A stretch of 64,000 bases of DNA from Fibrobacteria bacterium (GCA_041746255.1 JBGTHM010000102.1:28758-92757); one strand, 5' to 3'; counted from the first letter of the stretch, positions 4,970 through 20,607 are shown. A program made the numbers and translations. Notes: generated by a model not told the origin, from the letters alone.

Positions 4970-5449
4970 ATGAAGCTCAGCGATGTGGCCCACCTGGTCA
5001 AGCTTTTGGACAAGAGCAGCTTGACGGAGTTAAGCTTTAGTGACGAAATAAGTCGGGTGGTGCTGAAAAAAGGGGTAACGGGAGTCGTTACGACCGTTTC
5101 TCCCCAACAGGCGCCCGCCCCCCAATATTTTCAGCCGGCTCCGGGGCCGTTTCCCGGGGCTAGCGCCTCTCCGGAAATATCCCCTCCGGCGGAAAAAGCC
5201 GGTCCCAAATTCAAGGAGGTCACCTCGCCCATGGTAGGTACCTTCTATGCTTCCTCCACCCCGGGCGCAGCCGCGATGGTAGAGGTGGGCTCTACAGTCA
5301 AGGCGGGACAGGTGGTGTGTATTATCGAAGCGATGAAAATCATGAACGAAATCGAATCGGACGTGGGCGGAGTCGTGGAGGAGGTCTGCGTGAAAAACGA
5401 AACCCCGGTTGAATACGGCACGGTCCTATTCCGGATCCGCCCGGGCTGA
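4970..5449 (+). CDS. accB: Acetyl-CoA carboxylase biotin carboxyl carrier protein
   Basis: Pro/Ala-rich linker followed by a biotinyl domain containing EAMKIMNEIE (AMKM biotinylation motif) and a C-terminus resembling E. coli BCCP. Confidence 0.88.
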   Translation: MKLSDVAHLVKLLDKSSLTELSFSDEISRVVLKKGVTGVVTTVSPQQAPAPQYFQPAPGPFPGASASPEISPPAEKAGPKFKEVTSPMVGTFYASSTPGAAAMVEVGSTVKAGQVVCIIEAMKIMNEIESDVGGVVEEVCVKNETPVEYGTVLFRIRPG

Positions 5450-5453
5450 ATCC

Positions 5454-6554
5454 GTGAATCTTGAAGTTTTATTGCGGGAAATGATGCACCGAAGTGCATC
5501 GGATCTCCACCTTAGGGTGGGAGGACAACCCGCATTCCGCATCAACGGGGAACTTTACCGGCTGCAAACCGAGCGCCTGCTTCCCGAGCAGATGGAACAA
5601 TTCATACTCGACCTGATGGATCGGAACCAAAAGGCACGGTTCGAGGAAAACATGGAGCTTGATTTCGCTGTGGGAGTACGCGGAGTGGGACGATTTCGCG
5701 TCAATGCCTATAAGCAACGCGGCACTCCCGCGCTATGCATTCGGGCCATTGTCGGCATTATTCCCCCCTTCGAACAATTGGGCCTCCCCGAGATTATCCG
5801 CGACATCGCCTTGAAGCGCCGCGGCCTCATCCTTGTCACGGGGACCACCGGATCGGGCAAATCCACTACCTTGGCTTCGATGATCGATCATATCAACGAG
5901 CACCTGGCCTGCAATATCATCACTATCGAAGACCCCATCGAATTTTTATACAAGGACAAAAAAAGCATCATTTCGCAGCGCGAGGTGAACCAGGATACCG
6001 TCAGCTACGCATCGGCTTTGAAAGCCGCTTTCCGGGAAGATCCGGACGTGATTCTCCTCGGTGAAATCCGCGACCAGGACACCATGTCCATTGCGCTGAC
6101 CGCGGCCGATACCGGCCATTTGGTGCTCTCCACCCTGCACACCATGAACGTGGTGGAAACCGTGAACCGCATCATCTCCTTTTTTCCTCCCCACCAACAC
6201 CAACAGGTTCGGCTTATGCTGAGCTCGGTGCTGGTTTCCGTCATCACCTTGCGGCTTGTCGTGCGCAAGGACGGACGAGGGCGGGCCCCGGCTTGCGAGA
6301 TCATGGTGAACAATGCCACTTTACGGGAATTACTCACGTATCCCGAGCACACGCACCAAATCGACGCGGCGATTCGTGAGGGCCATACTCAATACGGTTC
6401 GCAGTCATTCGATCAAAGTATTCTCAAGCTCTATCAAGACGATGTCATCAGCTACGAAACGGCCCTGGCGAACGCCAGCAATCCCGACGATTTCGAGCTC
6501 AAGGTTCGGGGCGTAGAAGGCACCTCCGACAGGAATTGGATAAGCGGTGTTTAA
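5454..6554 (+). CDS. pilT: Type IV pilus retraction ATPase PilT
   Basis: Near-collinear with P. aeruginosa PilT. Shared elements are ASDLHL, GVxRFRVNA, Walker [44 protein letters not shown] and [11 protein letters not shown]. The probable start is the GTG at 5454 just after the accB stop; the track's TTG at 5409 lies inside accB. Confidence 0.88.
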
Positions 6555-7914
6555 AAAAATTCTGATAGCCAATCGCGGCGAAATTGCGCTGCGAGTCATT
6601 CGTTCATGCAAAGAAATGGGAATCAAGACGGTGGCGGTACACTCCAGCGCCGATACCCATTCCTTGCACGTTCACTTTGCCGACGAAGATATTTGCATCG
6701 GTCCGCCCGATTCCAAGCGCAGCTACCTGAACATGCAACAGATTCTGGCTGCGGCGGAACTTACCAACGCCGATGCCATTCATCCCGGATATGGATTTTT
6801 ATCGGAGAACGCCAAATTCGCCGAAATGTGCGAAGACAACCGGGCAGTATTCATCGGCCCTTCGGCGGAAGTCATCCGGAGCATGGGCGACAAGAGCGTA
6901 GCCAAATCGACCATGAAAAAAGCGGGAGTGCCCACCATTCCGGGATCCGAAGGCGTGGTGGCGACCCTGGACGATGCCCTGGCCGCAGCCAAGACGGTAG
7001 GGTTTCCCGTCATCGTAAAGGCTTCGGCGGGAGGCGGCGGACGGGGCATGCGCGTGGCCCATTCGGAAGAAGAATTGAAGAAACTGTATCCGGTAGCCGC
7101 AGCCGAGGCGGTGGCCTGTTTTGGCCGAGGCGATTTGTATCTGGAACGCTATTTCACCGAGCCGCGCCATGTCGAAATCCAGCTTATCGGCGATAAGCAT
7201 GGGAACATGGTGTATTTGGGTGAACGCGACTGTTCCATCCAACGCAGGCATCAAAAACTCATCGAAGAATCTCCCAGTCCGGCAGTAACTCCCGAGATAC
7301 GTGAGAAAATGGGGAAGGTAGCGGTGGCGGGAGCCCGCTACGCCGGATATTACAATGCCGGAACCATCGAATTCCTTTTCGACAGCAAGGATTCCTCCTT
7401 CTTTTTCATGGAAATGAATACGCGCATCCAGGTGGAGCATCCCGTAACCGAAGCCACCACGGGAGTGGACCTGGTGCGGGCGCAAATCCAGGTGGCCGCG
7501 GGTGAACATCTGGAATTCACCCAGGAAAGCATCCAGCTTTTTGGGCACAGCATCGAATGCCGGATCAACGCGGAGGATCCGAACAACGACTTCCGGCCCA
7601 GCCCGGGCACCATCACCGAATTCCACCTTCCCGGGGGGATGGGGGTACGGATCGATACCCATTGTTATAGCGGTTACGTGGTTCCCCCCAATTACGACAG
7701 CATGATAGCCAAGCTGATCGTGCACGCGCCTACGCGGGAACAAGCCATTGAGCGTATGCTGCGCGCCCTGGACGAATTCATCATCGTAGGCATCAAGACG
7801 ACCATTTCCATGCATAAGCGCATCTTGCGCCATCCGAAATTCGCCCAGGGTGAATACAGCACCCGATTTTTGGAACTCTATCCCGAACTCCTAGTGGAGC
7901 CCCTCAATGCCTGA
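6547..7914 (+). CDS. accC: Acetyl-CoA carboxylase biotin carboxylase subunit
   Basis: N-terminus [30 protein letters not shown] matches E. coli AccC. An ATP-grasp domain follows, with [14 protein letters not shown]. The GTG start overlaps the pilT stop by 8 nt. Confidence 0.93.
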
Positions 7915-8893
7915 TATGTCCCAGCGTCTGAGTATTTCCAGCGCCTCCGAACTCACGGGGGTTTTTCCCGCCCTGTTCACTCCGCTCAAAGACGATGACC
8001 GGAAGCGTCTCAACAATTCCATCGACTACGAAAAGGCGAAAGTCATTATCGACGATCTGATTGCAGCCGGGGTATCGGGGCTGGTACCGGTGGGCACTAC
8101 GGGCCAAAGCCCCACGGTCAGCCATGCCCAGCATCTTGATTTTATCCGCTTCACCGCGGAATACGTGGAGAAGCGGGTGCCTATTATCGCGGGGGCGGGC
8201 TCCAACTGCACCCGGGAGTCGGTGGAAATGATCCAGAAGATCGGGAAATCGGTAGGCGATGTGGCAGTGCTTTGCGTGACGGGATATTATAATAACCCTC
8301 CGCAAGAAGGCGTAAAGCTCCATTATGAAACGCTGGCGGCCGAGACCGGAGCCAAAATCGTCGTTTACAACGTGCCGAGCCGCACGAATTCGTATGTCGA
8401 GCCCGAAACCCTGATTGCTTTAAGCGCGCTCCCGGGAATTATCGGCGTGAAGCAGGCGGTCGATTTCAGGGCGGAAGGCAAACATCGCGAGGATACGCGG
8501 AGGGTGCTGCAATCCGTCGATAAATCCCAATTCGCCGTGGTATCGGGAGAAGACGATTTGCTGTACGCCTTGCTCGAACTGGGCGGTACGGGTGTGATCA
8601 CCGCATCCGGAAACATACCCGAGGTGGCGAGGCTTTATCTGCGCATGATAAAAGCCTGGACAGACGGCGAGTCGAAATCCGCGGCTGCGCTTCAAGAAGA
8701 AGTATCCGAATTCGCGCGACTGGTCTTCATGCGCAAAAATCCGATACCGCTGGGTACCTTCTTCAATTCTCCCCTTTATCTTCCCTTGGTTTCCGTGAGG
8801 GAAACCGCGGACGGCGAAAAGGCTGAAGAGGAAATTCTCGCCTTCATCAAATCCAGGGCAATCTCGCTGGTAAAATACCATAATCGAGAGTAG
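7907..8893 (+). CDS. DapA-family class I aldolase (4-hydroxy-tetrahydrodipicolinate synthase-like)
   Basis: LFTPLKDDD...[18 protein letters not shown]..., YNVPSRT and a Schiff-base lysine context IIGVKQAVD fit the DHDPS/NAL family. The precise substrate cannot be assigned. Confidence 0.7.
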
Positions 8894-8912
8894 CTTCATC
8901 CGGAAGGAAAGC

Positions 8913-9485
8913 ATGTCCGACATCAAGGCTCCGACCCGTCCCGGCCTCGAAACCGCGGCTCTCATCAAAGCCCGCATCCGAACCATTCCCAATTGGCCCA
9001 AGCCGGGGGTTCAGTTCCGGGACGTCACCACCCTTTGGAATGATCCCGAAGGGTTCCGGCTCAGCGTGGACGCCTTCGCCGAATATTACGGGGGACTGGA
9101 TTTTACCACCATCGTCGGAATCGAAAGCCGGGGTTTCATCATCGGTGCGGCCTTGGCCGCCCGGCTGGGCAAGGGATTCGTACCCATCCGTAAAATGGGC
9201 AAGCTTCCCGCCGAAGTCGAAAGCCAGGAATACGAATTGGAATACGGCAGCGATTGCATTGAAATCCACCGGGATGCCATCATCGCGGGCCAAAAGGTTT
9301 TGCTGATGGACGATTTACTGGCTACCGGCGGGACCATGCGAGCGGCTTGCCACTTGCTTTCCAAACTGGGCGGAACGGTACTTTCCTGCGGAGTGATCGT
9401 GGACTTACCGGTGCTCGGTGGCCGCAAGGTGCTCGAGGCGGAAGGTTCCCATGTCTTCTCGCTGGTCGAGTTCGACGGAGACTGA
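8913..9485 (+). CDS. apt: Adenine phosphoribosyltransferase
   Basis: IRTIPNWPKPGVQFRDVTTL followed by the PRPP-binding motif VLLMDDLLATGGT, at a length of 190 aa. Confidence 0.9.
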   Translation: MSDIKAPTRPGLETAALIKARIRTIPNWPKPGVQFRDVTTLWNDPEGFRLSVDAFAEYYGGLDFTTIVGIESRGFIIGAALAARLGKGFVPIRKMGKLPAEVESQEYELEYGSDCIEIHRDAIIAGQKVLLMDDLLATGGTMRAACHLLSKLGGTVLSCGVIVDLPVLGGRKVLEAEGSHVFSLVEFDGD

Positions 9486-9652
9486 TCCGGGCCCATCCTC
9501 GGCGCTCCAATCCTGTTCATCCTACACGCCAAGCCCCGGCCAACTCAGAAGGAATTCGTGTCCGGCAATGGGTTCTGACCCGACATTTTATTTTTTCCCC
9601 GCTGCAGTGACACATTCCTCCCTTTGCGGTGTTCCAAGAATAGAATAGACAC

Positions 9653-10150
9653 ATGGACTCGGAAAAGCTGAAAAACCTGTACCGCCGGTATGGCCCGCTT
9701 GTGCTGCGGCGCTGCGGTCGACTATTGGGTAATTCCACCGAAGCCGAGGACGCCATGCAGGAGGTTTTCATGCAGATTCTAAGGAATCCCGCGCTGATCG
9801 ATGCCGAGTTTCCCTCCAGCCTTTTGTACAAGATCGCCACGAACACCTGTCTGAACCGTCTGCGAGGGCGTTCGCGTCGGGCCGAGACGCGCGAGGATGC
9901 CGCCTTGCTCGCCATCGCCTCGGAGGAGGACGTGGAGGCGCGCTCGGCTGCCGGGCGTTTGCTCGACCGGTTGTTTGGACGCCACCCCGAATCCACCCGC
10001 GTCATGGCCGTACTGCACTTCTTGGACGGTCTCACGCTTGAAGAAGTGGCGCGCGAGACCTCGCTCTCCGTATCCGGTGTTCGCAAGCGCCTTCGCGCGC
10101 TGAAGGATAGCTCCCTTAAACTCGGCGACACGGAGGTTGTCCATGGCTGA
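9653..10150 (+). CDS. ECF-subfamily RNA polymerase sigma-70 factor
   Basis: 165 aa with sigma-70 region 2 (LYRRYGPLVLRRCGRLLGNSTEAEDAMQEVF) and region 4 HTH (LDGLTLEEVARETSLSVSGVRKRL). Its end overlaps the next gene by 14 nt. Confidence 0.85.
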   Translation: MDSEKLKNLYRRYGPLVLRRCGRLLGNSTEAEDAMQEVFMQILRNPALIDAEFPSSLLYKIATNTCLNRLRGRSRRAETREDAALLAIASEEDVEARSAAGRLLDRLFGRHPESTRVMAVLHFLDGLTLEEVARETSLSVSGVRKRLRALKDSSLKLGDTEVVHG

Positions 10151-11006
10151 GCCCATTTTACCGGGATCCTCGGAACCCGTTTCCGACCTGCTTTTGGAGC
10201 GTTACGCGCTCGGCGAGTTGCCGCTCGATCTGAAACGGCGAGTTGAGGCGCGACTGGACGTGGATCCTGCGCTAAGCGCCCGCCTCGACTCTTTGCGCGC
10301 CTCCGACGAAACGTTGCTGAAGCAATATCCTCCCGAAGTCGTCGTGCCAAGCCTTAGAAACCTACTCCGACGCGAGCGGGTGGAAATGAATAACCGTAAC
10401 GCGCATACGGGACGGAGCTCGGCCTATTTTCTGGCAAAGCCTGTCTTCGCGGCCGCGCTTGTGTTAGCGGCGGTGTCCATCCCCCTGTGGCAGTTCGGGC
10501 GATCGGTGCTTCCACCTTTGGTGGATGAAGGCCTAGTCGCTGTTATTTCCGTCCCGGAACCTTCCGTAATTGCGCCGGAACCCACGAAAGAGGGCACACG
10601 AATCAAAGGACTGGATCCCGCCATCGCGCTGTTCCGACGCACGGATCAGGGCGCCGAGGCCCTCAAGCCTGGCGCGACGGTGCGTCCTGGCGATGTGCTC
10701 CGGGTCGGCTATCGCTCCGGCGGTTTTCCATTCGGCGCCATCTTTTCGGTGGACGGAAACGGTAGCGTTACCCGCCATTGGCCGCTTGCGGGCGACGGTG
10801 GGGGCCGCCTCGAGGCCGGAGAGCAACTGCTCCCCGGCGCGTTCATGCTGGATGCGGCCCCGGATTATGAACGATTTTTCCTGTTGGTTTCGGAAGAACC
10901 ATTCAATCTGAATCCCGAGCTGGAGGCGCTGCTTGCCGGTAATCCACCCAGGACACGCGGGCTCCAAACAATACGCTTCGAACTCCTGAAGGACAATGGA
11001 ATATGA
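10137..11006 (+). CDS. Membrane-spanning anti-sigma factor with a periplasmic DUF4384-like domain
   Basis: Translationally coupled to the ECF sigma gene. An N-terminal anti-sigma-like helix (LLERYALGELPLDLKRRVEARL) is followed by one TM segment (FAAALVLAAVSIPLW) and a C-terminal beta-rich domain (GDVLRVGYRSGGFPFGAIFSVDGNGSVTRHWP...FFLLVSEEPF). That domain recalls DUF4384, a domain I remember as often found with caspase domains. Confidence 0.6.
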   Translation: MSMAEPILPGSSEPVSDLLLERYALGELPLDLKRRVEARLDVDPALSARLDSLRASDETLLKQYPPEVVVPSLRNLLRRERVEMNNRNAHTGRSSAYFLAKPVFAAALVLAAVSIPLWQFGRSVLPPLVDEGLVAVISVPEPSVIAPEPTKEGTRIKGLDPAIALFRRTDQGAEALKPGATVRPGDVLRVGYRSGGFPFGAIFSVDGNGSVTRHWPLAGDGGGRLEAGEQLLPGAFMLDAAPDYERFFLLVSEEPFNLNPELEALLAGNPPRTRGLQTIRFELLKDNGI

Positions 11007-13399
11007 AAACCCCTCTCGCTCTCATACTGACGGCATCGCTCTGCCTGGCCCAAATTACTCATGCCGCGGCATCGGATGGCGCGACGCGCCGATTCGCGCT
11101 GGTAATCGGCGCGCACGAAGGCGGTAAGGGGCGCGACCGGCTCCTGTACTCCGGTTCGGATGCACGAGCCTTCCAGAATACGCTGCAGGAACTGGGCGGC
11201 CTGAGCTCGGTTGACGCGAATCTTTTGATTGATCCGGATAGCGCAGGCCTGCAGCGAGCCTTCGAAAAACTCGCGGCCCGGGTTCAGGTTGCGAGACGGG
11301 ACGGCGCGCGCACCGAGGCGGTCGTATACTACTCCGGCCATGCCGACGAGAACGGTTTGCAACTTGGCAAGGAGCGGTTCGACTATCGAGCCTTCCGGGA
11401 GCGGATGAACGCCCTCGGTGCGGATGTGCGCATCGCGGTAGTCGACGCCTGCGCGTCCGGAGCTCTCACCCGTATGAAGGGTGGCACGCCTGTGCAAGCT
11501 TTCATGGTGGACCGATCCGCGCGTGCCGAAGGTTACGCTTTCCTTACTTCCAGTTCCGAGAGCGAGGTGGCGCAGGAGAGCGATCGGCTGCGGGGATCCT
11601 TCTTCACTCATGCGCTCACCACGGGCCTTCGCGGCGCGGCCGACGCGACGCGGGACGGGCGCGTGACTTTGCACGAGGCCTATCAGTTCGCCTACCACGA
11701 AACCCTTGCCCGAACGGTGTCAACCCGAGGAGGGCCTCAGCATGCCGCCTACGACATCCAACTTAGTGGTAGCGGTGACGTGGTGCTTACCGATCTGCGT
11801 CAGGCCACGGCTTCACTGGTGCTGGCAGAAGCTTTGCACGGTCGGCTATTCATCCGGGACAGTCTCGATCATCTTACCGCCGAGTTGAATAAGCCCGCGG
11901 GACGCGAAATGAACTTTGGCCTACCGCCGGGAACCTACGGACTGCGCCTACAGCAGGGCACGAGTTGGAGCGGAGCCACGGTAACGTTGCTCGAAGGTAA
12001 ATCGGCCGTACTTGATCCGTCCTCCTTTCGCCCGGTCGAGAGCGAGCCCACGGCATTTCGCGGGGGGGAAGGCGATAGTGGTCGTGCGTTCCGGCATTTA
12101 CAGGGAACAGGAAATCCCGGATTTTCCGCCTCGTTCCTGTACGACGCGAAGAAAGAGGATTGGTACGGCACTCAGATCGCCCTGCTGGCCACCGATGGGC
12201 GCAAGAATCGCCGCGGCGGGCAGGTCGCGGTCGGGTTCAATTTTACGCGCGGGGATCTTGAGGGTTACCAGGGAGCAGCGGGCTTGAACGTGGTCGGGGG
12301 GGCGCTGCAGGGATTCCAGTTCGCGCAAATCGGAAACTTCACGGCTGAAGACGCACATGGCACGCAGTTCTCCGGGATCTTCGGAGCGACCGGCGGTGGT
12401 CTTAATGGTGTTCAGGTGGCCGGTATCCTTAACCTCGCCGGCGGCGGTGTCGAGGGCTTGCAAGGAGCCGGAATCTTCAACATCTCGGGCGATTCCGTAA
12501 GAGGCTTGCAAATAGGCGGTATCTTCAACATCGCTGCAGAAAGCGTACGCGGTGGACAAGGCGCCGGTATCTTCAATATCGCGGGCGGAAAGATAAAAGG
12601 CGGCCAAGGTGCCGGAATCTTCAACATCACCGCACGCGATATTATCGGAGGTCAGGGCGCCGGAATCTTCAACGTGGCCGGAGGCGACATCACAGGAGGT
12701 CAGGGCGCTGCCATTTTCAATGCGACTGCGGGATCTCTTAGAGGCATTCAAGGCTCGGCCATCTTGAATTTCGCCGGCCGGGTCGAGGGGCTTGCTTCGG
12801 ACAGGGGATCGATGCCGGGTTTCCAAATCACTTCCATTCTAAACGTCGCGGGGAAGGTCAATGGGCACCAAATCGGTTTGGTGAATCTATCGGATGACTA
12901 TCAATCGGGGTTTCCCCTGGGTCTCGTGAATATCAGCCGAAAAGGCGCGTTTCACGGCATAACGTGGGTGGACGAAACCGGCATGGCCTACGCGGGGCTG
13001 CGCACTGGGGTACGATCCGTATATTCCATCCTGGCGGTCGGAACGAATGCATTCGATGACCAGTCCCTGTTCGCTCCTACCTTCGGCATGGGCGCGCGTT
13101 TCTCCTTGGGCAAGTCCTGGTTCCTGGAACCCGACCTGATGTACAGCACGCTTTTCGAGTCGAAGAACTATTCATTCGATGACGCGGAAGTAAACACGGA
13201 GTGGTCGCGCCTAAGATTTGCCGCAGGGTGGGAATTTCTCCCCTACGCTTCCGTATTCTGGGGGGTGGCATACAATGTAGCAGTACACACCCAAACGGAT
13301 GCCCCGGTGACGGGAAGCAATTTTCCTTTTTTCACCTCGGTTTCCCATCACGTCAGCATGTGGCCCGGGGCATTCCTGGGAATTCGTGTCGGAAAGTGA
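11003..13399 (+). CDS. Secreted caspase-family (peptidase C14) protein with 17-aa tandem repeats and a beta-rich C-terminal domain
   Basis: Signal peptide MKTPLALILTASLCLAQITHAAAS. The caspase-like domain carries a His-Cys dyad context (VVYYSGHADENG ... IAVVDACASGALTR). The central region holds about 8 repeats of GGQGAGIFNIAGGxIx. The C-terminal roughly 190 aa alternate hydrophobic and polar residues in the manner of beta-strands. The start overlaps the anti-sigma stop by 4 nt. Confidence 0.72.
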   Translation: MKTPLALILTASLCLAQITHAAASDGATRRFALVIGAHEGGKGRDRLLYSGSDARAFQNTLQELGGLSSVDANLLIDPDSAGLQRAFEKLAARVQVARRDGARTEAVVYYSGHADENGLQLGKERFDYRAFRERMNALGADVRIAVVDACASGALTRMKGGTPVQAFMVDRSARAEGYAFLTSSSESEVAQESDRLRGSFFTHALTTGLRGAADATRDGRVTLHEAYQFAYHETLARTVSTRGGPQHAAYDIQLSGSGDVVLTDLRQATASLVLAEALHGRLFIRDSLDHLTAELNKPAGREMNFGLPPGTYGLRLQQGTSWSGATVTLLEGKSAVLDPSSFRPVESEPTAFRGGEGDSGRAFRHLQGTGNPGFSASFLYDAKKEDWYGTQIALLATDGRKNRRGGQVAVGFNFTRGDLEGYQGAAGLNVVGGALQGFQFAQIGNFTAEDAHGTQFSGIFGATGGGLNGVQVAGILNLAGGGVEGLQGAGIFNISGDSVRGLQIGGIFNIAAESVRGGQGAGIFNIAGGKIKGGQGAGIFNITARDIIGGQGAGIFNVAGGDITGGQGAAIFNATAGSLRGIQGSAILNFAGRVEGLASDRGSMPGFQITSILNVAGKVNGHQIGLVNLSDDYQSGFPLGLVNISRKGAFHGITWVDETGMAYAGLRTGVRSVYSILAVGTNAFDDQSLFAPTFGMGARFSLGKSWFLEPDLMYSTLFESKNYSFDDAEVNTEWSRLRFAAGWEFLPYASVFWGVAYNVAVHTQTDAPVTGSNFPFFTSVSHHVSMWPGAFLGIRVGK
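12405..12795 (+). repeat. Coding tandem repeat of about 8 units at 48-51 bp period, encoding the GxQGAGIFNIAGG motif
   Basis: The ggaatcttcaacatc / ggtatcttcaa(t/c)atcgc cores recur at about 12474, 12521, 12569, 12620, 12668, 12716 and 12764. The antisense ORFs (MLKIPAP repeats) reflect the same periodicity. Confidence 0.8.
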
Positions 13400-13550
13400 T
13401 TTTGAGATTGGCCGGAACATCGCGTAAGGGCTACGTCGGGCGAGAACCCATACCGGTACGCACCGCACGGTGTGATTGAGACCACAATTCAAGCAAGCGA
13501 TAATTATTCATTTTTCCTCCGACCGCCTCCAGGCGGGTGGAGGAATAAAA

Positions 13551-15119
13551 ATGATCAGACCCTTGCTTTTTTCCGGCGTAGGGTTACTCCTGTACGGATC
13601 GGTTCATGCTGAACTGCTGCTTTCCGAGGTTATGGCCGATCCGGCAGCGGTACCCGACGCCTCGGGAGAGTATCTCGAGCTGGGAAACTCCGGTGATAAG
13701 GAATTGTTCCTCCGGAAATTGTCTATTGCGGTGGACGGCGATACCCTGGTTTTCCCCGATGTGAAATTGTCGGCCGGAGGGGTGGCATTGCTATGCCGCG
13801 ATTCCCTTCCCGAACGGAACGGAGGCATGGCCTGCGACAGGAAGGCCGAGCGGCTTAGGCTCGCTAACGGTAGGCCAATCGCCATTGTACTTCGCCATGA
13901 CGAGGGCGACGTAACCTATGAGATTCCCGCTGCAAGATCCGGTCAAAGCTGGGAGAATACCTGGGACGAAAAATCCGGATATTCCCGATTCGCCCTTGCA
14001 AACGGAATCCATGCCGGTGGCGACAAGGGGTCTCCTGGCCATTCCAACAGCGTGAGTGTCGTACCTCCGCTTTTTGATTTGGCGCTGACGGAAATCACTT
14101 TCCGGAAAGAAACGCGCGAGGCGCGACTACGCATCGAGAATCGGGGGCGCCTGCTTCCGGATTCCGCATCCGTCTCCCTGATTTCCAACCGAATTTTGAA
14201 CGGCATTCCCCATGCCGTCCTTAAAACCCGGTCGTTGGACATCTCTTCCTGCCGACAGGAATGCACGGTTCCATTCCTTTTCGAATCGGGAGGGCCTCCC
14301 GTGGTTAACTTCGCCTTATCGGGGGATTCCAACCCTCTGAACGATACCCTCCTCTTTGTCCTTCCCGAATATCGGCGGGGAGGATTGCTCCGGCTCACGG
14401 AGGTTTGCGCCGCACCCACCGACGGAGCTCCCGAGTGGGTGGAGATACGCAATGGGTCTTCCTATGCGATTGCCATAGGCGACCTGCGCTTACAAGACCG
14501 GTTGGTTTTGGGCGAAGGGCGCGCGGCGACGCTCAAGCCGGGGGAATACCTGGTCCTGACGGAAGACGAAAAAGCCTTTCGGGAAATCCACGGCGGTTTG
14601 AAATTGCGCCTTGTGCAACCACCCTCGTGGAGAGTACTGCGAAATACGGGGGATACGGTTCGCCTGGCTCTCCCCTCGGGAACATTACTGGATAGCGTGG
14701 CCTACCGGGGGTTTCGTCCATCCGACAATACGGGATGCCTGGAAAGGATGGGTGAGGACCTTGCGCCAGTGCTCGGTGAATCGCATGTGCTGGGATCGAC
14801 TCCCGGTTTCGAGAAAACCCGGGATAAGCCCACTGGATGGAAAATTTCACCGAGAATTTTACGAACGGACGAGGGCGGTCGCATTGATATTCAGGTGACC
14901 GCTTCGCCGCAAAAAGCATATCGCCTGGAGATTTTCGATTTGTCGGGGTATTCCGTGCGCGCCTTTTGCTCACCTTGCACGGGTAGCCGTTCCTTTTCCT
15001 GGAAGGGGGAAGATGAACGGGGAAAATCGCTTCCCGTAGGCCCCTACATAGTCCTGTTCCATCCGCAGGGGGACAACCCCCATAAAAAATCCCTGGTCAT
15101 TTCGAGAAAGTTACGATGA
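13551..15119 (+). CDS. Secreted protein with two lamin-tail-domain (LTD)-like modules and a C-terminal Ig-like sorting tail (T9SS CTD / FlgD-Ig-like)
   Basis: Signal peptide MIRPLLFSGVGLLLYGSVHA follows a ggaggaataaaaATG RBS at 13551. LTD signatures are LLSEVMADP...GEYLELGNSG and LRLTEVCAAPTDGAPEWVEIRNGS. The C-terminus RLEIFDLSGYSVRAF...SFSWKGEDERGKSLPVGPYIVLF...KKSLVISRK follows the T9SS C-terminal domain pattern. Confidence 0.6.
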   Translation: MIRPLLFSGVGLLLYGSVHAELLLSEVMADPAAVPDASGEYLELGNSGDKELFLRKLSIAVDGDTLVFPDVKLSAGGVALLCRDSLPERNGGMACDRKAERLRLANGRPIAIVLRHDEGDVTYEIPAARSGQSWENTWDEKSGYSRFALANGIHAGGDKGSPGHSNSVSVVPPLFDLALTEITFRKETREARLRIENRGRLLPDSASVSLISNRILNGIPHAVLKTRSLDISSCRQECTVPFLFESGGPPVVNFALSGDSNPLNDTLLFVLPEYRRGGLLRLTEVCAAPTDGAPEWVEIRNGSSYAIAIGDLRLQDRLVLGEGRAATLKPGEYLVLTEDEKAFREIHGGLKLRLVQPPSWRVLRNTGDTVRLALPSGTLLDSVAYRGFRPSDNTGCLERMGEDLAPVLGESHVLGSTPGFEKTRDKPTGWKISPRILRTDEGGRIDIQVTASPQKAYRLEIFDLSGYSVRAFCSPCTGSRSFSWKGEDERGKSLPVGPYIVLFHPQGDNPHKKSLVISRKLR

Positions 15120-15997
15120 TGATTTGGCGTCTTGTCTGGGTTTGTATGGGAATGCTCCTTCCCGCGTCCGGTTTTTTCCGGGACGATTTGCAGGGAGGGA
15201 TTTACGGCTCCTCCCTCGGTGCCGGTGGCGGGACGGCCTGGGAACGCATGGCGCATGGGCAGAATCCGGCGGCATCCAAGGAGAGAGGATACGGAGCCTA
15301 CCTTGGCTACCATTCGCCCTTTGGTATGGATGGACTTAATGTGGTGGAAGCCGGACTCCATATCGATGGGCGGCGTTGGGGGACGGCATTGGGGTTTCTC
15401 CAAACCGAGGTCGAGGAATTCTATCGCGAACAAAGCCTGGAAGTCCAATTCTCATGGACCCTCGGGACGCTTTCCTTAGGCGGCATGGGTGTGCTTCGCC
15501 GTGTTCACCTTCCCGAACCGGAAAGCGAGCTAATCGGTGGAGAGGCATGGGGATTATTATGGCGCCCTTTTCCCAAGTTGGTTCTGGGTGGTTTTTGCCG
15601 TAATTTCGCCTCACGAAATATCTGGACGCGTGAACTCAATCCGATTGTACAGGTCGGATTTCGGGTTCAAGATGAGCAGGATGGTTCGCATCCTGGTGGC
15701 AGGGCGATTCGCCCTGCGCTGGCTTTCGACTTGCGCCGGGTCCGAAATTCATATTGGCGTGCGCTAATCGCACACAGTTTGTGCATTGGTCCCGACTTAG
15801 TGCTGACGGCCGGTTTGGCCAACCGGCCTTTTCAATTTTCGGTAGGCGCGGCCATAAGTTGGTCCGGCGCCACGATTTACTATGCGATGCGCACGCATAC
15901 GGCCTTGGGCCGGACGAATTACCCCGGTCTGGCTTTTGTTCGTTCGTTGGAAGAAGGTGGAATTTCCGGAGCGGCCGGAGAAAGGCACGCACCTTGA
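15116..15997 (+). CDS. Hypothetical membrane protein, possibly a PorP/SprF-like T9SS partner
   Basis: The start overlaps the preceding stop (ATGA). The protein is 293 aa with a hydrophobic N-terminus, an NPA-containing segment (HGQNPAASKERGYGAY) and an amphipathic beta-strand-like composition. Its position directly after a CTD-bearing cargo gene matches the usual SprF/PorP arrangement. The assignment is weak. Confidence 0.35.
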   Translation: MMIWRLVWVCMGMLLPASGFFRDDLQGGIYGSSLGAGGGTAWERMAHGQNPAASKERGYGAYLGYHSPFGMDGLNVVEAGLHIDGRRWGTALGFLQTEVEEFYREQSLEVQFSWTLGTLSLGGMGVLRRVHLPEPESELIGGEAWGLLWRPFPKLVLGGFCRNFASRNIWTRELNPIVQVGFRVQDEQDGSHPGGRAIRPALAFDLRRVRNSYWRALIAHSLCIGPDLVLTAGLANRPFQFSVGAAISWSGATIYYAMRTHTALGRTNYPGLAFVRSLEEGGISGAAGERHAP

Positions 15998-16086
15998 CTT
16001 TACCCGCTTTTTTCCCGACAATTACTGCAATCTTAACCTAAAGAGCAAATTCCGTAATTCGGTTCCTTAACGCCGCCTTCCGCTCC

Positions 16087-17313
16087 ATGCGGGTCCGGTT
16101 ACAAGGGTGTAAGGTTGTCATGATTCGCATGCACATGGATGAGGTTAAGGCGGGTATGGTCCTGGCCCGCTCCCTGGTGAAGGAAAACGGAGATTTGTTG
16201 CTGGCCTCGGGCTTCGTCATAACCGAGCGCGTTTTGGCCAAGCTTCGTGAAATCGGCCTTTCGGGGTGCTATGTCTACGAAGAAGGCACGGAATTCGTCA
16301 TTCCCGAAGAAATGATTTCGGAGCAGCTCGCCAATCAAACCCAGGGAATCTTGAAGGATAATGCCGAGGCGCTCAAGACCGCTCTCAAAACCCAGGAAAT
16401 CACCCAGGATAACCTGAAATCCGCGCTCAAGGACAAGTCCCGCTTTAAAAATATCATCGCGGTGGACCGCATGAAGAACGCCGCTCAGGATATTATCAAT
16501 AGCTTGATGGGGAGCGAGCCCGTAATCGTGAATATCAGTTCCATCCGCACCAAAAGCGGCTATGTCTTCCAACATGCGTTAGACGTCGCTGTTACCGCCA
16601 TCATGGTGGGAGTGCGTATCGGTTATTCGGAAAAGGAATTGGAGGAGTTGGCGATGGGTTGTCTGCTCATGGATTTGGGCATGGTCATGATATCGGATAG
16701 CATCGTTTACAAGACCTCGCCCTTGAACGATGCGGAGAAAAACCTGCTGCGCGAGCACACCACTCTAGGATACGCGATTTTGCGGGAGAATCAAAAAATC
16801 GCCTTGACCACGGCGCATGTCGCTTATCAACACCATGAGAGGCAGGACGGAACAGGTTTCCCCCGGGAATTGATCGGGGACAATACCCTTCCCATCAAGC
16901 GAATTTCGGGTGAGAGAAATCGAATGCACCGATATGCGGAAATAGCCGCCGTGGCAGACACTTATGTGAGCCTCCTCTCCCCGCGCCCGGGAACAGGCGT
17001 ATTGCGCACACCGGATGAAGTGATGAAACTTCTCATCCTAGGATCCGGAACCCATCTCAACAAGTCAATCGTGGACGGGTTAATCACCATGATCCCGATT
17101 TTTCCCGTGGGATCGCGCATTGCCGTGGTGGAGGATCGTAAGTTCGGAAAGTTGTTGGGTTGCACCGGAATCGTCACAAAAACCCGCATGGATGCGCCGG
17201 AACAGCCAGAAATCGTCGTTCTTTACGATAAGGAGAAGAATAAAATGACTCCGGTGATAATCGACTTACTCGAAGAGCCGGGAGTAAAAATCCAATTCGC
17301 GAAATTGCGATGA
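16087..17313 (+). CDS. HD-GYP domain c-di-GMP phosphodiesterase-like protein
   Basis: HD motif HALDVAVTAIMVG, HTTLGYAIL and the signature HHERQDGTGFP (GYP variant GFP). Confidence 0.75.
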   Translation: MRVRLQGCKVVMIRMHMDEVKAGMVLARSLVKENGDLLLASGFVITERVLAKLREIGLSGCYVYEEGTEFVIPEEMISEQLANQTQGILKDNAEALKTALKTQEITQDNLKSALKDKSRFKNIIAVDRMKNAAQDIINSLMGSEPVIVNISSIRTKSGYVFQHALDVAVTAIMVGVRIGYSEKELEELAMGCLLMDLGMVMISDSIVYKTSPLNDAEKNLLREHTTLGYAILRENQKIALTTAHVAYQHHERQDGTGFPRELIGDNTLPIKRISGERNRMHRYAEIAAVADTYVSLLSPRPGTGVLRTPDEVMKLLILGSGTHLNKSIVDGLITMIPIFPVGSRIAVVEDRKFGKLLGCTGIVTKTRMDAPEQPEIVVLYDKEKNKMTPVIIDLLEEPGVKIQFAKLR

Positions 17314-17331
17314 AGAGGCAAATGCGTCTAA

Positions 17332-18273
17332 TTGCTATTTTCCAGGAACATGACGGATAATCCCATATCGGCGGACGCGGAGGTGGCTTCGGCGGTAGAG
17401 GCTTATTTGGCTTTTATCAAAAATGAAAGAGGTTACTCCCGGCATACCCAGTCCGCTTACGCAGGCGACTTAGCCAAGCTAACCGCCTGGTTGGAACAAA
17501 CTTCCGTTCCTGGAGGCGCTCACGCCGCCCTGGAGATACTGGACAAGAAATTATTGCAAAGATTCCTGTTGGCTCAGCGCGGCGGCTTTTCCGCGGCTAC
17601 CCAGGAAAGGCTTGTGGCCTGCCTGAAAGGCTTCGGTAAATTTCTGGCATTGCGGTATTCGATGGATAAGAATCCGGCACAGGGCCTGGTTTTCCCACGT
17701 AAGGAAAAAAAATTGGCATCGGTCGCGGGCGAGGGATTTTTGAAGGAGTTGTTGGAGGTGGAAGTCGACGGGTTTACCGCCTTGCGAACCCGGCTGTGTC
17801 TGGAGATGTTTTATGGCTCCGGCTTGCGCCTTAGCGAGTTGGTGAATTTGAAGTGGAACCATATTTCCCGTGATGCCCGCATGGCCCGGGTATTGGGCAA
17901 AGGCAACAAAATGCGCACCGTACCCCTTACCCAATCCGCGCAGGAGGCGCTTGGCGCCTACCGGGCCGAATGCTCCCGACGGGCCTATCCCCGGGATGGA
18001 GCCCTGCTGCTTACGCAAACCGGCAAGCCGCTGGGCGGACGAAGCGTACAAAAGAATATCACGGATCTGCTGCGCACGATGGGCAGACAGGGCAAATCTT
18101 CTCCGCATATTCTCCGCCACTCCTTCGCGACCCACCTTTTGGATCATGGCGCGGATCTCATGGCGGTGAAGGAGATGCTCGGACATTCCTCCCTCTCGAC
18201 CACGCAAAAGTATACGCATGTGTCGGTCGCCAAATTGAAGGAGACCTATGGACGCGCGCATCCCAGGGCCTGA
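17332..18273 (+). CDS. Tyrosine site-specific recombinase, XerC/XerD type
   Basis: N-terminal core-binding domain (ERGYSRHTQSAYAGDLAKLTAWL) and catalytic domain with RTVPLT, LRHSFATHLLDHGADLMAVKEMLGHSSLSTTQKYTHV (R...HxxR...Y). The ATG at 17350 is an alternative start. Confidence 0.8.
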   Translation: MLFSRNMTDNPISADAEVASAVEAYLAFIKNERGYSRHTQSAYAGDLAKLTAWLEQTSVPGGAHAALEILDKKLLQRFLLAQRGGFSAATQERLVACLKGFGKFLALRYSMDKNPAQGLVFPRKEKKLASVAGEGFLKELLEVEVDGFTALRTRLCLEMFYGSGLRLSELVNLKWNHISRDARMARVLGKGNKMRTVPLTQSAQEALGAYRAECSRRAYPRDGALLLTQTGKPLGGRSVQKNITDLLRTMGRQGKSSPHILRHSFATHLLDHGADLMAVKEMLGHSSLSTTQKYTHVSVAKLKETYGRAHPRA

Positions 18274-18330
18274 TTCGCCTTCAGGCGAGTAGACCCACAT
18301 GACTCGCAGCATGGAAAGGCTGACTTAACT

Positions 18331-20607
18331 ATGACTGACTCACCGAATTCCGAATATGCCGTACGCACCCTCATGGAAAGGGTGGCTGTGCTGGAAGCCC
18401 GATGCGCGGAGCGTGAGGAGACCCTGAAGAGTCTGGGCAGTTTGACCGAAGGACGGGAATTGGAACTCAACCGTCTTAAGCTTCTATTCGACAATATTCC
18501 CGACGCCATCCACTTCAAAGACAAGGAAGGCCGTTACACCTGGGTAAACAAGGCCAAGGCGGATTCCATGGGGCTTAAAGACAGATCCGAGGCGATAGGC
18601 AAGACCATGTTCGAAACGTATTCGGCGCAATTCTCCTGGGAGGTTCTGGCGGAAGAGCAGAAACTGATGACGACTCAGGTTCCCATCATCGATAAAATCG
18701 AAAGGATAACCCGGAAAGATGGTGAGGTACGGTGGCATCAGGTGACCAAAATCGCCCTGCTCGACTCGGAGGGTCAGGTAGTGGGAACCGCTGGAGTCAT
18801 GCGGAATATCACCGAACGCAAGCAGATGGAGGACGAACTGTTCAAAGCAAGTATGCTATTGAATACTTTCCTCGATCAGGTTCCAGATGCGGTGTATTTC
18901 AAAGATGTGGAATGCCGTTTCATTCGAGTCAGCCGCAGTATCCACCTTGAGGGAATGAAAAACAAAGAGGAGGCCATAGGTAAGACCGATTTCGACTATT
19001 TCACGGAGGAGCATGCGCGCCAGGCTTATATAGACGAGCAGGAAATTATCCGAACCGGCGTTCCCATAATCGATAAAATTGAAAAGGAGACCTACCGCAA
19101 TAAGGAAGAGACCTGGGTTTCCACCACCAAGGTCCCCTACTACGATGCGGAAGGAAAGGTGGCCGGCATCATAGGCATATCCCGCGATGTTACCGAGCGA
19201 TTCCGGGCGCAGGAAGCCATACGGATGGCCAAGGAAGAATTGGAAATCCGGGTGCAGGAGCGCACGGCTGCGTTGGTGCAGGAAATTCGTGAGCATCTCA
19301 AAATGCAGAAGGCGCTCAGGGACAGCGAAGGAATGTTGCAGGACTCGAACGTTCGGCTGGAAACGCGCCTGTCGCAATTGAAATATTTGAACGCGACGGC
19401 GCATCAGCTTTCGCAATTCACCAGCAGGAAGGACTTGCTGCCCGCCATTCTCAGATCTTTTACTCAATGTTATCCGGGTCTCGAAATGGTCCTATGCGAA
19501 GGCTCTAACGGAGAGTTGCGCTGCACGGCGGCGACTCCGGGTCTGGATAATCCAGTCGCCAGGGCCGCCTGCGAAAAGGCTCTCTCCGCAGGATACGATT
19601 CCCTGGACGCCAGGCTCGTAGTCGACCGAAGGCTGGACCCGACGTTGGCCGGCCTGAATATCAAGGGTTTTGAGCATTTGACCGTGCATTTGGCGCTCCC
19701 GTTGGTCATGAAGAACAGGCGGATTGCCGTGGCGCAAATATTAGCCGCCAAAGAATTCGCGGAATGGTTTCCCCTGGAGCAGGAAATGATCGATACGCTG
19801 GCCGCGCAATCCGCTATCAGTCTGGACAACGCCAACAATTTCGAAGAATTGGAGAAGCGGGCCCGGGTGCAATCCGAACTCGACGTGGCCCAGCGCATCC
19901 AACGGCGCTTCACTCCGCAAGACCGGGTATCCATTCCCCGCCTCCAGGTTAAAGGTGTGTACCACCCTGCTTATGAAGTCGGCGGGGACTACCTGGATTA
20001 TTTCGAAACCAAATCCGGAAGTTGGGTGATTGTAATCGCAGACGTAAGCGGAAAAGGAATACCCGCGGCGTTGGTGATGACGATGTTGCGAAGTACCTTC
20101 CGGGCCGAGGCACGCTACGAGACTTCGGCCAAAAAACTGCTTTGCGCCGTGAACGACATGATGAGCCAGGATTTGGACGAAAAATCCTTCGTGACGGCCC
20201 TGTGCCTTATCGTCGACAAGGATGGACGTTCCATGACATACGCCCGCGTCGGCCACCCGCCTTTGGTGATTCGGCGTAAGAGCGTGGAGTCGCCGGAAAC
20301 CATCACTCCCAAGGGAATCGGACTGGGAATGGTGGATGCCGAAACGTTCACGCGTACCATTGAGGAAGTGCATATCGATTTGACCGAAGGCGACCGCTTT
20401 CTCATCTTCACCGACGGTCTCACGGAAGCGCGCGATTCAAACAAGGAGTCCTACGGAATGGAACGGGTTATGGGCCAATTATCGGGAGGAGAGCGCCTGG
20501 GTCCCGAAAAGGCCCTGAATAGACTTCTCAAAGACGTTGAGGCCTTTATCGGCAATGAACCTTATCATGATGATTTGACCATTTTGGCGATGGAAGTCAT
20601 CGGATAG
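18331..20607 (+). CDS. Multi-PAS / GAF sensor fused to a PP2C-type (SpoIIE/RsbU-like) serine phosphatase
   Basis: Three PAS-like modules, each ending ...RDVTERK / RNITERK, are followed by a GAF-like region and a C-terminal PP2C domain (GGDYLDYFE...VIADVSGKGIPAALVMTM...FTDGLTEARD). Confidence 0.8.
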   Translation: MTDSPNSEYAVRTLMERVAVLEARCAEREETLKSLGSLTEGRELELNRLKLLFDNIPDAIHFKDKEGRYTWVNKAKADSMGLKDRSEAIGKTMFETYSAQFSWEVLAEEQKLMTTQVPIIDKIERITRKDGEVRWHQVTKIALLDSEGQVVGTAGVMRNITERKQMEDELFKASMLLNTFLDQVPDAVYFKDVECRFIRVSRSIHLEGMKNKEEAIGKTDFDYFTEEHARQAYIDEQEIIRTGVPIIDKIEKETYRNKEETWVSTTKVPYYDAEGKVAGIIGISRDVTERFRAQEAIRMAKEELEIRVQERTAALVQEIREHLKMQKALRDSEGMLQDSNVRLETRLSQLKYLNATAHQLSQFTSRKDLLPAILRSFTQCYPGLEMVLCEGSNGELRCTAATPGLDNPVARAACEKALSAGYDSLDARLVVDRRLDPTLAGLNIKGFEHLTVHLALPLVMKNRRIAVAQILAAKEFAEWFPLEQEMIDTLAAQSAISLDNANNFEELEKRARVQSELDVAQRIQRRFTPQDRVSIPRLQVKGVYHPAYEVGGDYLDYFETKSGSWVIVIADVSGKGIPAALVMTMLRSTFRAEARYETSAKKLLCAVNDMMSQDLDEKSFVTALCLIVDKDGRSMTYARVGHPPLVIRRKSVESPETITPKGIGLGMVDAETFTRTIEEVHIDLTEGDRFLIFTDGLTEARDSNKESYGMERVMGQLSGGERLGPEKALNRLLKDVEAFIGNEPYHDDLTILAMEVIG

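Follow-up and report, generated by a model that had tools for sequence, protein, structure and literature searches.

We describe a three-gene cassette at positions 9607-13399 of a 64,000-nucleotide (nt) stretch of DNA from a Fibrobacteria bacterium (GCA_041746255.1 JBGTHM010000102.1:28758-92757; hereafter the window), which encodes a sigma factor of the extracytoplasmic function (ECF) type (g1), an anti-sigma factor (g2) and a caspase-family protein (g3). We tentatively interpret it as a self-inducing trans-envelope signalling cassette, in which a protease tethered to the outer membrane may well cleave the anti-sigma factor. The in silico basis of this interpretation consists of the identities of the genes, their domain architecture, the catalytic dyad of the protease, the recurrence of the trio across phyla, and a promoter motif common to these loci; the periplasmic orientation of the protease, the anti-sigma factor as its substrate, the cleavage site and the signal are what we infer beyond these. 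An earlier note, made from the sequence alone, had joined the three genes to two downstream ones, g4 and g5, in a single operon. The five genes are real, and the sole conserved unit among them is g1-g2-g3; the earlier boundary was drawn too wide. The cassette and its 5' border comprise the following features.

9569 to 9592, + strand: terminator-like hairpin and T-run after apt, TGGGTTCTGACCCG then ACATTTTATT, from a consensus scan only
9607 to 9633, + strand: predicted ECF-type self-regulated promoter, -35-like GTGACA (9607-9612), 15-nt spacer, -10-like GGTGTT (9628-9633)
9653 to 10150, + strand: g1, ECF sigma factor open reading frame (ORF), 165 amino acids
10143 to 11006 (ATG start, 287 amino acids) or 10137 to 11006 (TTG start, 289 amino acids), + strand: g2, anti-sigma factor ORF
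11003 to 13399, + strand: g3, caspase-family ORF, 798 amino acids

The linkage of these genes is far beyond what chance adjacency would produce, as the earlier note had supposed. Eighty genomic loci encoding g3 relatives (given here as L numbers) were searched with the other four proteins of the five-gene run, and 72 of them, with at least 1.5 kb of sequence upstream of the caspase gene, form the informative subset. The caspase gene is preceded by both the sigma and the anti-sigma gene in 56 of the 72, by the anti-sigma gene alone in 11 (mostly Myxococcaceae and Archangiaceae), by the sigma gene only in one, and by neither in four. The anti-sigma gene therefore adjoins the caspase gene in 67/72 loci, and sigma orthologues 43-79% identical to g1 occupy the same position in 57/72. 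These loci span Fibrobacterota, Spirochaetota and Leptospirales, Myxococcota, Latescibacterota and FCPU426; the closest homologues come from Fibrobacteria and Chitinispirillaceae, and full-length g3 homologues number more than 3,267 at E<=1e-5 among the candidates examined. Anti-sigma and caspase genes often overlap by 4 nt and stay paired even when the sigma gene is elsewhere, a persistence that would be expected of physical partners. Clustering of the flanking ORFs of the 80 loci yielded no fourth conserved gene beyond within-family synteny. TonB-dependent receptor-like genes lie near the trio in 8-9 of the 80 loci and are absent from this window.

g1 is an ECF (group IV) sigma factor with its anti-sigma gene directly downstream, as had been proposed. 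It scores above the cut-off for Pfam Sigma70_r2 (56 bits, cut-off 24, E 3.5e-15), Sigma70_ECF (23.1, cut-off 21.1) and NCBIfam TIGR02937 (69.4 bits, cut-off 42.9), reaches 25.0 bits for Sigma70_r4_2 (cut-off 25.7), and matches the SigW, SigE and RpoE structures in sequence. In the portion of the ECF classification supplement available to us, which does not extend to the ECF Hub group pages, there is no 'caspase' or 'Peptidase_C14' entry; peptide words of g1 find no match in the tables of that portion, and the only DUF4384 anti-sigma factors in it belong to ECF25, the promoter of which (GGAAC-Xn-GTC) is unlike GTGACA...GGTGTT.

To derive the promoter motif, the 220-bp upstream regions of 57 sigma genes were analysed for enriched k-mers and dyads, which gave GT(G/A)ACA-N15-17-GGTGTT, located 40-110 bp 5' of the sigma start codon in 43 of the 57 loci, across phyla. 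In the window its -10-like GGTGTT lies about 20 nt 5' of the g1 ATG, and this is the one copy of the motif in 64 kb, where 0.1 would be expected for the strict pattern. Across 2.2 Mb of loci (both strands) there are 90 matches, 44 of them within 260 bp upstream of sigma genes. The motif also precedes all 12 of 12 anti-sigma/caspase pairs that lack an adjacent sigma gene, as well as the lone caspase genes at L008, L061 and L070, the first of which comes from the same metagenome-assembled genome as the complete trio at L039. Taken together with its occurrence ahead of other genes, described next, this distribution supports self-regulation, in-trans control of extra copies and, in some lineages, a link to the outer membrane and TonB. 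We propose that the trio is transcribed from its own predicted ECF-type promoter and would hence be self-inducing, with the hairpin after apt marking the 5' boundary of the cassette.

Outside the trio, the motif precedes TonB-dependent receptor-like Plug genes (L006:4085-6680, L026:2298-4630, L043:2499-4956, L046:3797-6274 and L047:4017-6446), ExbB genes (L022:5356-6277 on the minus strand and L072:2055-2785), and solenoid-plus-barrel homologues of g3 that lack the caspase domain (L018:4760-5704, L039:5481-6452 and L066:213-1403). The caspase-less proteins may be structural paralogues or decoys, and the receptor-like and ExbB genes hint that TonB-dependent uptake is, in some lineages, under the control of the sigma factor.

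It is also possible to see these genes as an outer-membrane regulon with the caspase as one of its members, since the predicted sigma-dependent promoter always precedes the caspase gene, lone copies included. The anti-sigma factor would then sense alone, and the caspase would be the main product of the regulon, acting in envelope remodelling or quality control or as a cell-death executor, and would have no role in signalling. We consider this possible but doubtful. Anti-sigma/caspase pairs have been duplicated and kept without a sigma gene in 11/72 loci, a pattern not easily accounted for unless the two proteins act jointly; sensors of cell-surface signalling systems are themselves targets of their sigma factors, so that regulon membership is compatible with a signalling role; and, as detailed below, the two proteins have an R-x-K-G motif in common.

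Some individual loci deserve mention. The pairs without a sigma gene that carry the promoter motif are those at L002, L017, L027, L029, L035, L037, L040, L044, L065, L069, L071 and L076, most of them in Myxococcaceae and Archangiaceae genomes, and the full trio also occurs in some myxobacterial loci (L050, L055 and L082). The existence of both forms among myxobacterial loci suggests, from gene content, that several sensor pairs may feed one sigma factor. L065 (BNCN01000010.1), titled Comamonas sp. KCTC 72670, has a flanking-gene set in common with Myxococcus, Citreicoccus and related loci, and L007, titled uncultured Bifidobacterium sp., holds a Fibrobacteria-like trio; the titles of these two records look taxonomically inconsistent with their content, and the records are possibly mislabelled or mis-binned. 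A Fibrobacteria homologue of g2 (P0141, locus L012) is named 'ActD' by NCBI, and an identification of the trio with the Myxococcus act operon was considered and dropped. Upstream of the trio in L055 and L057 there are BlaI/BlaR1-like, Usp, nonribosomal peptide synthetase and major facilitator superfamily genes, with no response regulator or sigma-54 activator among them, and a literature search on actC/actD returned papers on alternative complex III only. Recent horizontal transfer of the trio was likewise rejected: its bulk G+C content (0.60-0.62) is higher than that of the flanks, but G+C at third codon positions (GC3, 0.65-0.74) matches that of housekeeping neighbours.

g2 is, according to its structural model, a class I single-pass anti-sigma factor, with a putative sigma-binding helical domain at the N-terminus and a periplasmic domain at the C-terminus. 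The earlier description of a single-pass protein with a beta-rich periplasmic domain thus holds. The AlphaFold2 model has a predicted local distance difference test score (pLDDT) of 79.6. In the 289-residue numbering, which counts from 10137, helical residues 17-63 have pLDDT above 90, hydropathy places a single membrane helix at about 99-121 (about 97-119 in the 287-residue numbering), and a disordered linker of about 40 residues (115-155) leads to a confident beta-sandwich at 160-286. The N-terminal part alone matches the NCBIfam anti-sigma model NF052375 (6.5e-9, 36 bits, cut-off 100). DUF4384 (PF14326) gives weak matches in 14 of 20 aligned members of the g2 family, the best at E 0.0033, and none in g2 itself even at E up to 10; a g2-family profile found nothing significant among PDB sequences. 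Homology between the periplasmic sandwich of g2 and the sandwich at residues 261-340 of g3 was tried and rejected (hhalign probability 0.3%). One short motif at the edge of the low-confidence linker stands out by its conservation.

10599 to 10610, + strand: g2 motif R155-I-K157-G158, at the junction of the linker and the periplasmic domain

The arginine of this motif is retained in 65/70 orthologues and the lysine and glycine in 69/70 each, and K157 and G158 are invariant in the g2-family alignment (A2). From its position and conservation, we regard R155-I-K157-G158 as a candidate cleavage site.

The third protein, g3, combines an exported caspase domain with a repeat region and a membrane barrel. 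Its AlphaFold2 model, built from 35 homologues, has a mean pLDDT of 82.7 and resolves the following features.

11003 to 11071, + strand: signal peptide, residues 1-23
11087 to 11722, + strand: C14 domain with caspase fold, residues 29-240 (loop 152-193 with pLDDT <50)
11339 to 11341, + strand: codon of catalytic His113 (YYSGH), aligned with the His of metacaspase-4 YSGHG
11450 to 11452, + strand: codon of catalytic Cys150 (VDACASG), aligned with the Cys of AtMC4 DSCHSG
11471 to 11485, + strand: R157-M-K159-G160-G161, within the flexible loop that closely follows the catalytic Cys
11783 to 12022, + strand: beta-sandwich, residues 261-340
12158 to 12925, + strand: curli-like beta-solenoid of about sixteen 16-residue repeats, residues 386-641
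12947 to 13393, + strand: 8-stranded beta-barrel, residues 649-797

The Pfam match to Peptidase_C14 is well above the cut-off (5.9e-13, 49.5 bits, cut-off 21.4), and the catalytic histidine (YYSGH) and cysteine (DACASG) named in the earlier note are borne out: His113 and Cys150 are invariant in the 35 aligned homologues (A1), and both, together with Asp148, are present in 80/80 loci. The g3-family profile aligns with Arabidopsis metacaspase-4, and Asp53 of g3 falls on the conserved Asp of the C-x-N-D motif. From established knowledge of metacaspases, we take Asp53 to be an S1-pocket residue, which would presumably favour Arg or Lys in the P1 position. In sequence terms, g3 is a metacaspase-like C14 protease that retains its dyad and is predicted to be active. 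The loop motif is conserved too, with R157 in 78/80 loci and K159, G160 and G161 in 80/80 each, and it is a candidate autoprocessing site or element of the S1 pocket. R-x-K-G is therefore near-invariant in a flexible segment of both g2 and g3.

The repeat region is very regular, with a 48-nt period, two strands per repeat and the consensus x3-G-x-Q-x-A-G-I-F-N-x-A-G-G. A rung of a beta-solenoid measures about 4.8 Å, so about 16 rungs would give g3 a stalk of roughly 7-8 nm. The barrel best matches the 8-strand barrels of OmpA, OprF and NspA. The signal peptide, the tandem repeats and the beta-rich C-terminus had all been noted before and stand, with the repeat unit corrected from 17 to 16 residues; the protein had been called a secreted caspase, and it is indeed exported, yet with an OmpA-like 8-stranded barrel in its model it is better described as anchored in the outer membrane. 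Since a barrel of eight strands is too small to export a passenger, the solenoid and the caspase domain should hang into the periplasm. An opposite arrangement would have the caspase and the solenoid displayed on the cell surface, in the manner of an autotransporter, as an adhesin or protease that never meets the anti-sigma factor. The solenoid does resemble the passenger domains of the autotransporter and two-partner secretion proteins Vag8, pertactin, Ag43 and EtpA; full-length g3 relatives are labelled by NCBI either 'caspase family protein' or 'LA_2272 family surface repeat-containing protein', and LA_2272 appears on a list of Leptospira proteins predicted to lie in the outer membrane or at the surface. 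We nevertheless think surface display unlikely, given that g3 has no Autotransporter match in Pfam and its modelled barrel has 8 strands against the 12 of a type Va translocator, and that its tight pairing with an anti-sigma factor bearing a periplasmic domain fits the periplasm better.

The cassette bears parallels with several known systems and coincides with none of those compared here. Like FecI/FecR/FecA, it distributes three parts over the cytoplasm, the inner membrane and the outer membrane, and its outer-membrane part is encoded with the sigma/anti-sigma pair and is itself a sigma target, with positive feedback that here is predicted; moreover, TonB-dependent receptor-like and ExbB genes carry its motif in several genomes. 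In contrast to FecA, g3 is a C14 protease with a solenoid and an 8-strand barrel rather than a TonB-dependent transducer; it lacks a Plug or signalling domain, with no Pfam match to Plug, TonB_dep_Rec or STN. g2 gives no match to the FecR domain and has a DUF4384-like sandwich instead.

A second parallel is Craspase, in which the caspase-family CHAT protease Csx29 cuts Csx30, a protein that inhibits an ECF sigma factor (CASP-sigma/RpoE); the C-terminal domain of one Csx30 group is DUF4384. In both systems, a caspase-superfamily protease is in genetic linkage with an ECF sigma factor and the inhibitor of the latter, and cleavage of the inhibitor, which changes sigma activity in Craspase, is what we propose for the cassette. 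Craspase is, in contrast, cytoplasmic, RNA-guided through Cas7-11 and built on a TPR-CHAT protease, whereas the cassette lacks a CRISPR context, its C14 protease carries a signal peptide and a barrel, and its inhibitor is a transmembrane protein with a periplasmic domain. No sequence similarity was found between g2 and any solved chain in this comparison. Because type III-E CRISPR loci provide known cases of a caspase-family protease controlling an ECF sigma factor, and because the cassette is present in this genome and absent from a related one (L086, described below), it could be asked whether the trio is an anti-phage defence or abortive infection module built on a caspase-like protease, akin to Craspase or to protease-gasdermin systems. 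This seems very unlikely to us: none of the five proteins has a PADLOC match, no cas, TPR-CHAT or gasdermin-like neighbours and no fourth conserved gene were found at the loci, the flanking genes have housekeeping functions and GC3 shows nothing unusual, protease and sensor domain both lie outside the cytoplasm, and the predicted regulon includes TonB-related genes.

In the RpoE/RseA/DegS-RseP and SigW/RsiW/PrsW systems, a single-pass anti-sigma factor receives an extracytoplasmic site-1 cut and is then degraded further. The cassette resembles these in having a single-pass anti-sigma factor that holds an ECF sigma factor, and it differs in its candidate site-1 protease, which is encoded in the operon, belongs to the caspase family of cysteine proteases and is tethered to the outer membrane; it contains no serine site-1 protease and is thus not of the RseA/DegS type. 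The gene context of ECF54 includes carboxypeptidase, subtilase and CHAT proteins, and control by a neighbouring protease, caspase-superfamily CHAT included, has been proposed for it on these grounds. ECF54 has been described without an anti-sigma factor, whereas the cassette has a canonical one at position +1 and a partner of the C14/solenoid/barrel type. Finally, g3 has the C14 fold, His-Cys dyad and metacaspase-like Asp of orthocaspases and other metacaspase-like C14 proteins. DUF4384 is known to accompany caspase homologues in bacteria; here the DUF4384-like domain is on the partner anti-sigma factor and not fused to the protease. Our searches of the literature on ECF and anti-sigma factors together with caspase, C14, orthocaspase or DUF4384 yielded no account of the linkage of the trio or of the anchoring to the outer membrane.

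The persistence of the anti-sigma/caspase pair without a sigma gene, the presence of R-x-K-G in both proteins and the precedent of Craspase argue for a direct partnership of g2 and g3. The earlier note had guessed that the protease might process the anti-sigma factor, and we consider this the best mechanistic hypothesis. In the mechanism we propose, the caspase domain would sit on a solenoid stalk of about 16 rungs, anchored by the C-terminal 8-stranded barrel and facing the periplasm. An envelope signal, possibly tied to TonB-dependent transport, would trigger the protease to cut the periplasmic linker of the anti-sigma factor at R-x-K-G, as a dedicated 'site-1' cleavage. General proteases of the membrane and the cytoplasm could then clear the remaining anti-sigma stub, and the sigma factor thus released would re-induce the cassette through GTGACA-N15-GGTGTT. 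It is tempting to go further and speculate that the rigid stalk extends towards the inner membrane and that the cut, at R-x-K|G, responds to a change in envelope geometry or TonB traffic, which would make the cassette a periplasmic, CRISPR-independent counterpart of Craspase; we regard this more specific version as conceivable and rather unlikely.

Several points weigh against cleavage of the anti-sigma factor by g3. The caspase gene lies clearly inside the predicted regulon and is possibly just output. The promoter call is in silico and comes from the motif alone. The likeness of the periplasmic domain to DUF4384 is weak, with g2 itself giving no match, and a Foldseek search of this domain against the PDB returned generic immunoglobulin (Ig)- or carbohydrate-binding-module-like sandwiches only, at E 0.05 or worse. 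R157 and K159 of g3 occupy the place of the metacaspase S1 pocket, so that the R-x-K-G common to both proteins is maybe structural or coincidental. The g3 barrel lacks the usual terminal aromatic residue, and the orientation of the caspase domain is read from barrel size only, while the NCBI label says 'surface repeat-containing'. Beyond architecture, conservation and the promoter motif, we infer the rest.

Downstream of the cassette lie the two genes that the earlier note had included in its operon, with the caspase tied to an LTD (lamin-tail domain) cargo and a PorP-like partner.

13476 to 13504, + strand: sigma-70-like promoter between g3 and g4, TTGAGA-17-GATAAT, 10/12, a consensus match only
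13551 to 15119, + strand: g4, LTD ORF, 522 amino acids
15116 to 15997, + strand: g5 ORF, 293 amino acids

All five ORFs are on the + strand as had been described, with 4-nt overlaps correctly reported for both g2/g3 and g4/g5. The gap between g3 and g4 is 151 nt, against the 150 bp given before. The 14-nt overlap of g1 and g2 in that account is true for the TTG start at 10137 only; homologues and the public gene call start g2 at the ATG at 10143, which leaves an overlap of 8 nt.

The two LTDs of g4 are well supported (1.1e-19 in two stretches, Pfam), as had been claimed. A type IX secretion system (T9SS)-like sorting tail, also claimed, corresponds only to a sub-threshold FlgD_ig match (6.5e-5, 23.3 bits, cut-off 27), and the TIGR04183 sorting domain was not detected at E up to 0.1. 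g4 is therefore described here as secreted, with two LTDs and, at its C-terminus, an Ig-like domain; a T9SS tail is plausible for it. The designation of g5 as PorP/SprF-like was not upheld, in that g5 itself matches no Pfam or NCBIfam model, including TIGR03519 and PF11751 (PorP/SprF) and NF033709 and NF033710 (PorV/PorQ), and its relatives lean towards PorV/PorQ. A single close homologue of g5, at locus L086, was found among 5.8 billion proteins, and an exhaustive HMMER search of 1.84 billion clusters gave a family of 44 representatives, g5 included, at E<=0.001 and of similar lengths. Among g5 and 35 relatives (36 aligned sequences, A3), five match PorV/PorQ (best 1.8e-12) and one matches PorP at 0.029. 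The family has an N-terminal motif G-x-N-P-A-A, in which N-P-A is almost invariant and which resembles the hatch motif of the FadL family; a g5-family profile found only insignificant FadL-family matches in the PDB (TbuX, E 1.3), over the N-terminal NPA region. g5 thus looks, by its sequence relatives, like a candidate small outer-membrane beta-barrel, remotely related to PorV/PorQ/FadL and not to PorP/SprF, and its family seems to form a separate branch, without annotation, among the FadL/PorV-like barrels of the outer membrane.

Comparison with L086 (GCA_964401245.1) bears directly on the five-gene proposal. This genome keeps apt, the LTD gene, a g5 homologue and an HD-GYP gene, and the trio is absent from it. 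DNA identity between the window and L086 is 82% over 5331-9485, 67% over 13618-15106 (the LTD gene) and 74% over 15159-20000, and the 4.07 kb between them that hold the trio (9486-13550) have no counterpart. The g4 orthologue in L086 is 61% identical in amino acid sequence. Its LTD gene and g5 homologue lie about 4 kb apart, separated by two small ORFs, a DUF4423 gene and a DUF2341/Laminin_G_3 gene; L086 4244-10924 and window 9486-15997 thus differ by two independent indels in one short syntenic stretch. In this genome, the 4-nt overlap of g4 and g5 suggests co-expression of the two, an adjacency that is not kept in L086.

An operon of five genes, in which the caspase would be coupled to the LTD cargo and its membrane partner and might for example process the LTD protein, has some features in its favour. 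The genes are tightly packed on one strand, no canonical terminator follows g3, so that read-through into g4 and g5 is possible, and the overlap of g4 with g5, the remote likeness of g5 to PorV/PorQ and the Ig-like C-terminal domain of g4 would suit a cargo and its partner. Comparative genomics nonetheless largely refutes the idea, which we hold to be extremely improbable. Homologues of g4 and g5 occur beside the caspase gene in 0/80 loci; L086 has both genes, apart from each other and without the trio; and the closest trio-bearing relatives (L006 and L087) have a TonB-dependent receptor-like gene downstream, not g4. These three observations delimit the conserved unit to three genes. In addition, the sigma-70-like promoter in the gap argues that g4 and g5 form a separate transcription unit, and the window contains no second copy of the ECF motif. 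Judged from this gene context, g4 and g5 are unrelated local neighbours of the cassette. Just 5' of the g4 start codon, at 13516-13543, there is an inverted repeat, CCTCCGACCGCCTCCAGGCGGGTGGAGG, the stem of which pairs the GGAGG ribosome-binding site in both the minimum free energy and the centroid fold (z-score of the whole region, -2.0); it may control translation of g4 or weakly hinder transcription beyond g3.

The trio is a variant of ECF sigma/anti-sigma signalling with a dedicated partner, composed of proteins that individually already carry generic annotations. It also offers a lesson for annotation, as a real three-gene module could here be told apart from an accidental five-gene neighbourhood. 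Orthocaspases are abundant, and almost none has a known substrate or role; the cassette offers a concrete candidate partner, in that the gene for the protease is firmly tied to that of a transmembrane anti-sigma factor, and the conserved promoter could serve as a ready-made reporter. It occurs in cultivable organisms, including Myxococcus, Archangium, Corallococcus and Marispirochaeta. If the anti-sigma factor is indeed cleaved by g3, the protease would represent a new class of site-1 protease for ECF signalling, tethered to the outer membrane and belonging to the caspase family, and the logic of Craspase, in which a caspase cleaves a sigma inhibitor, would exist outside CRISPR immunity. For the first time, moreover, an orthocaspase would have a defined physiological role in trans-envelope signalling, one that is conserved in at least four phyla.

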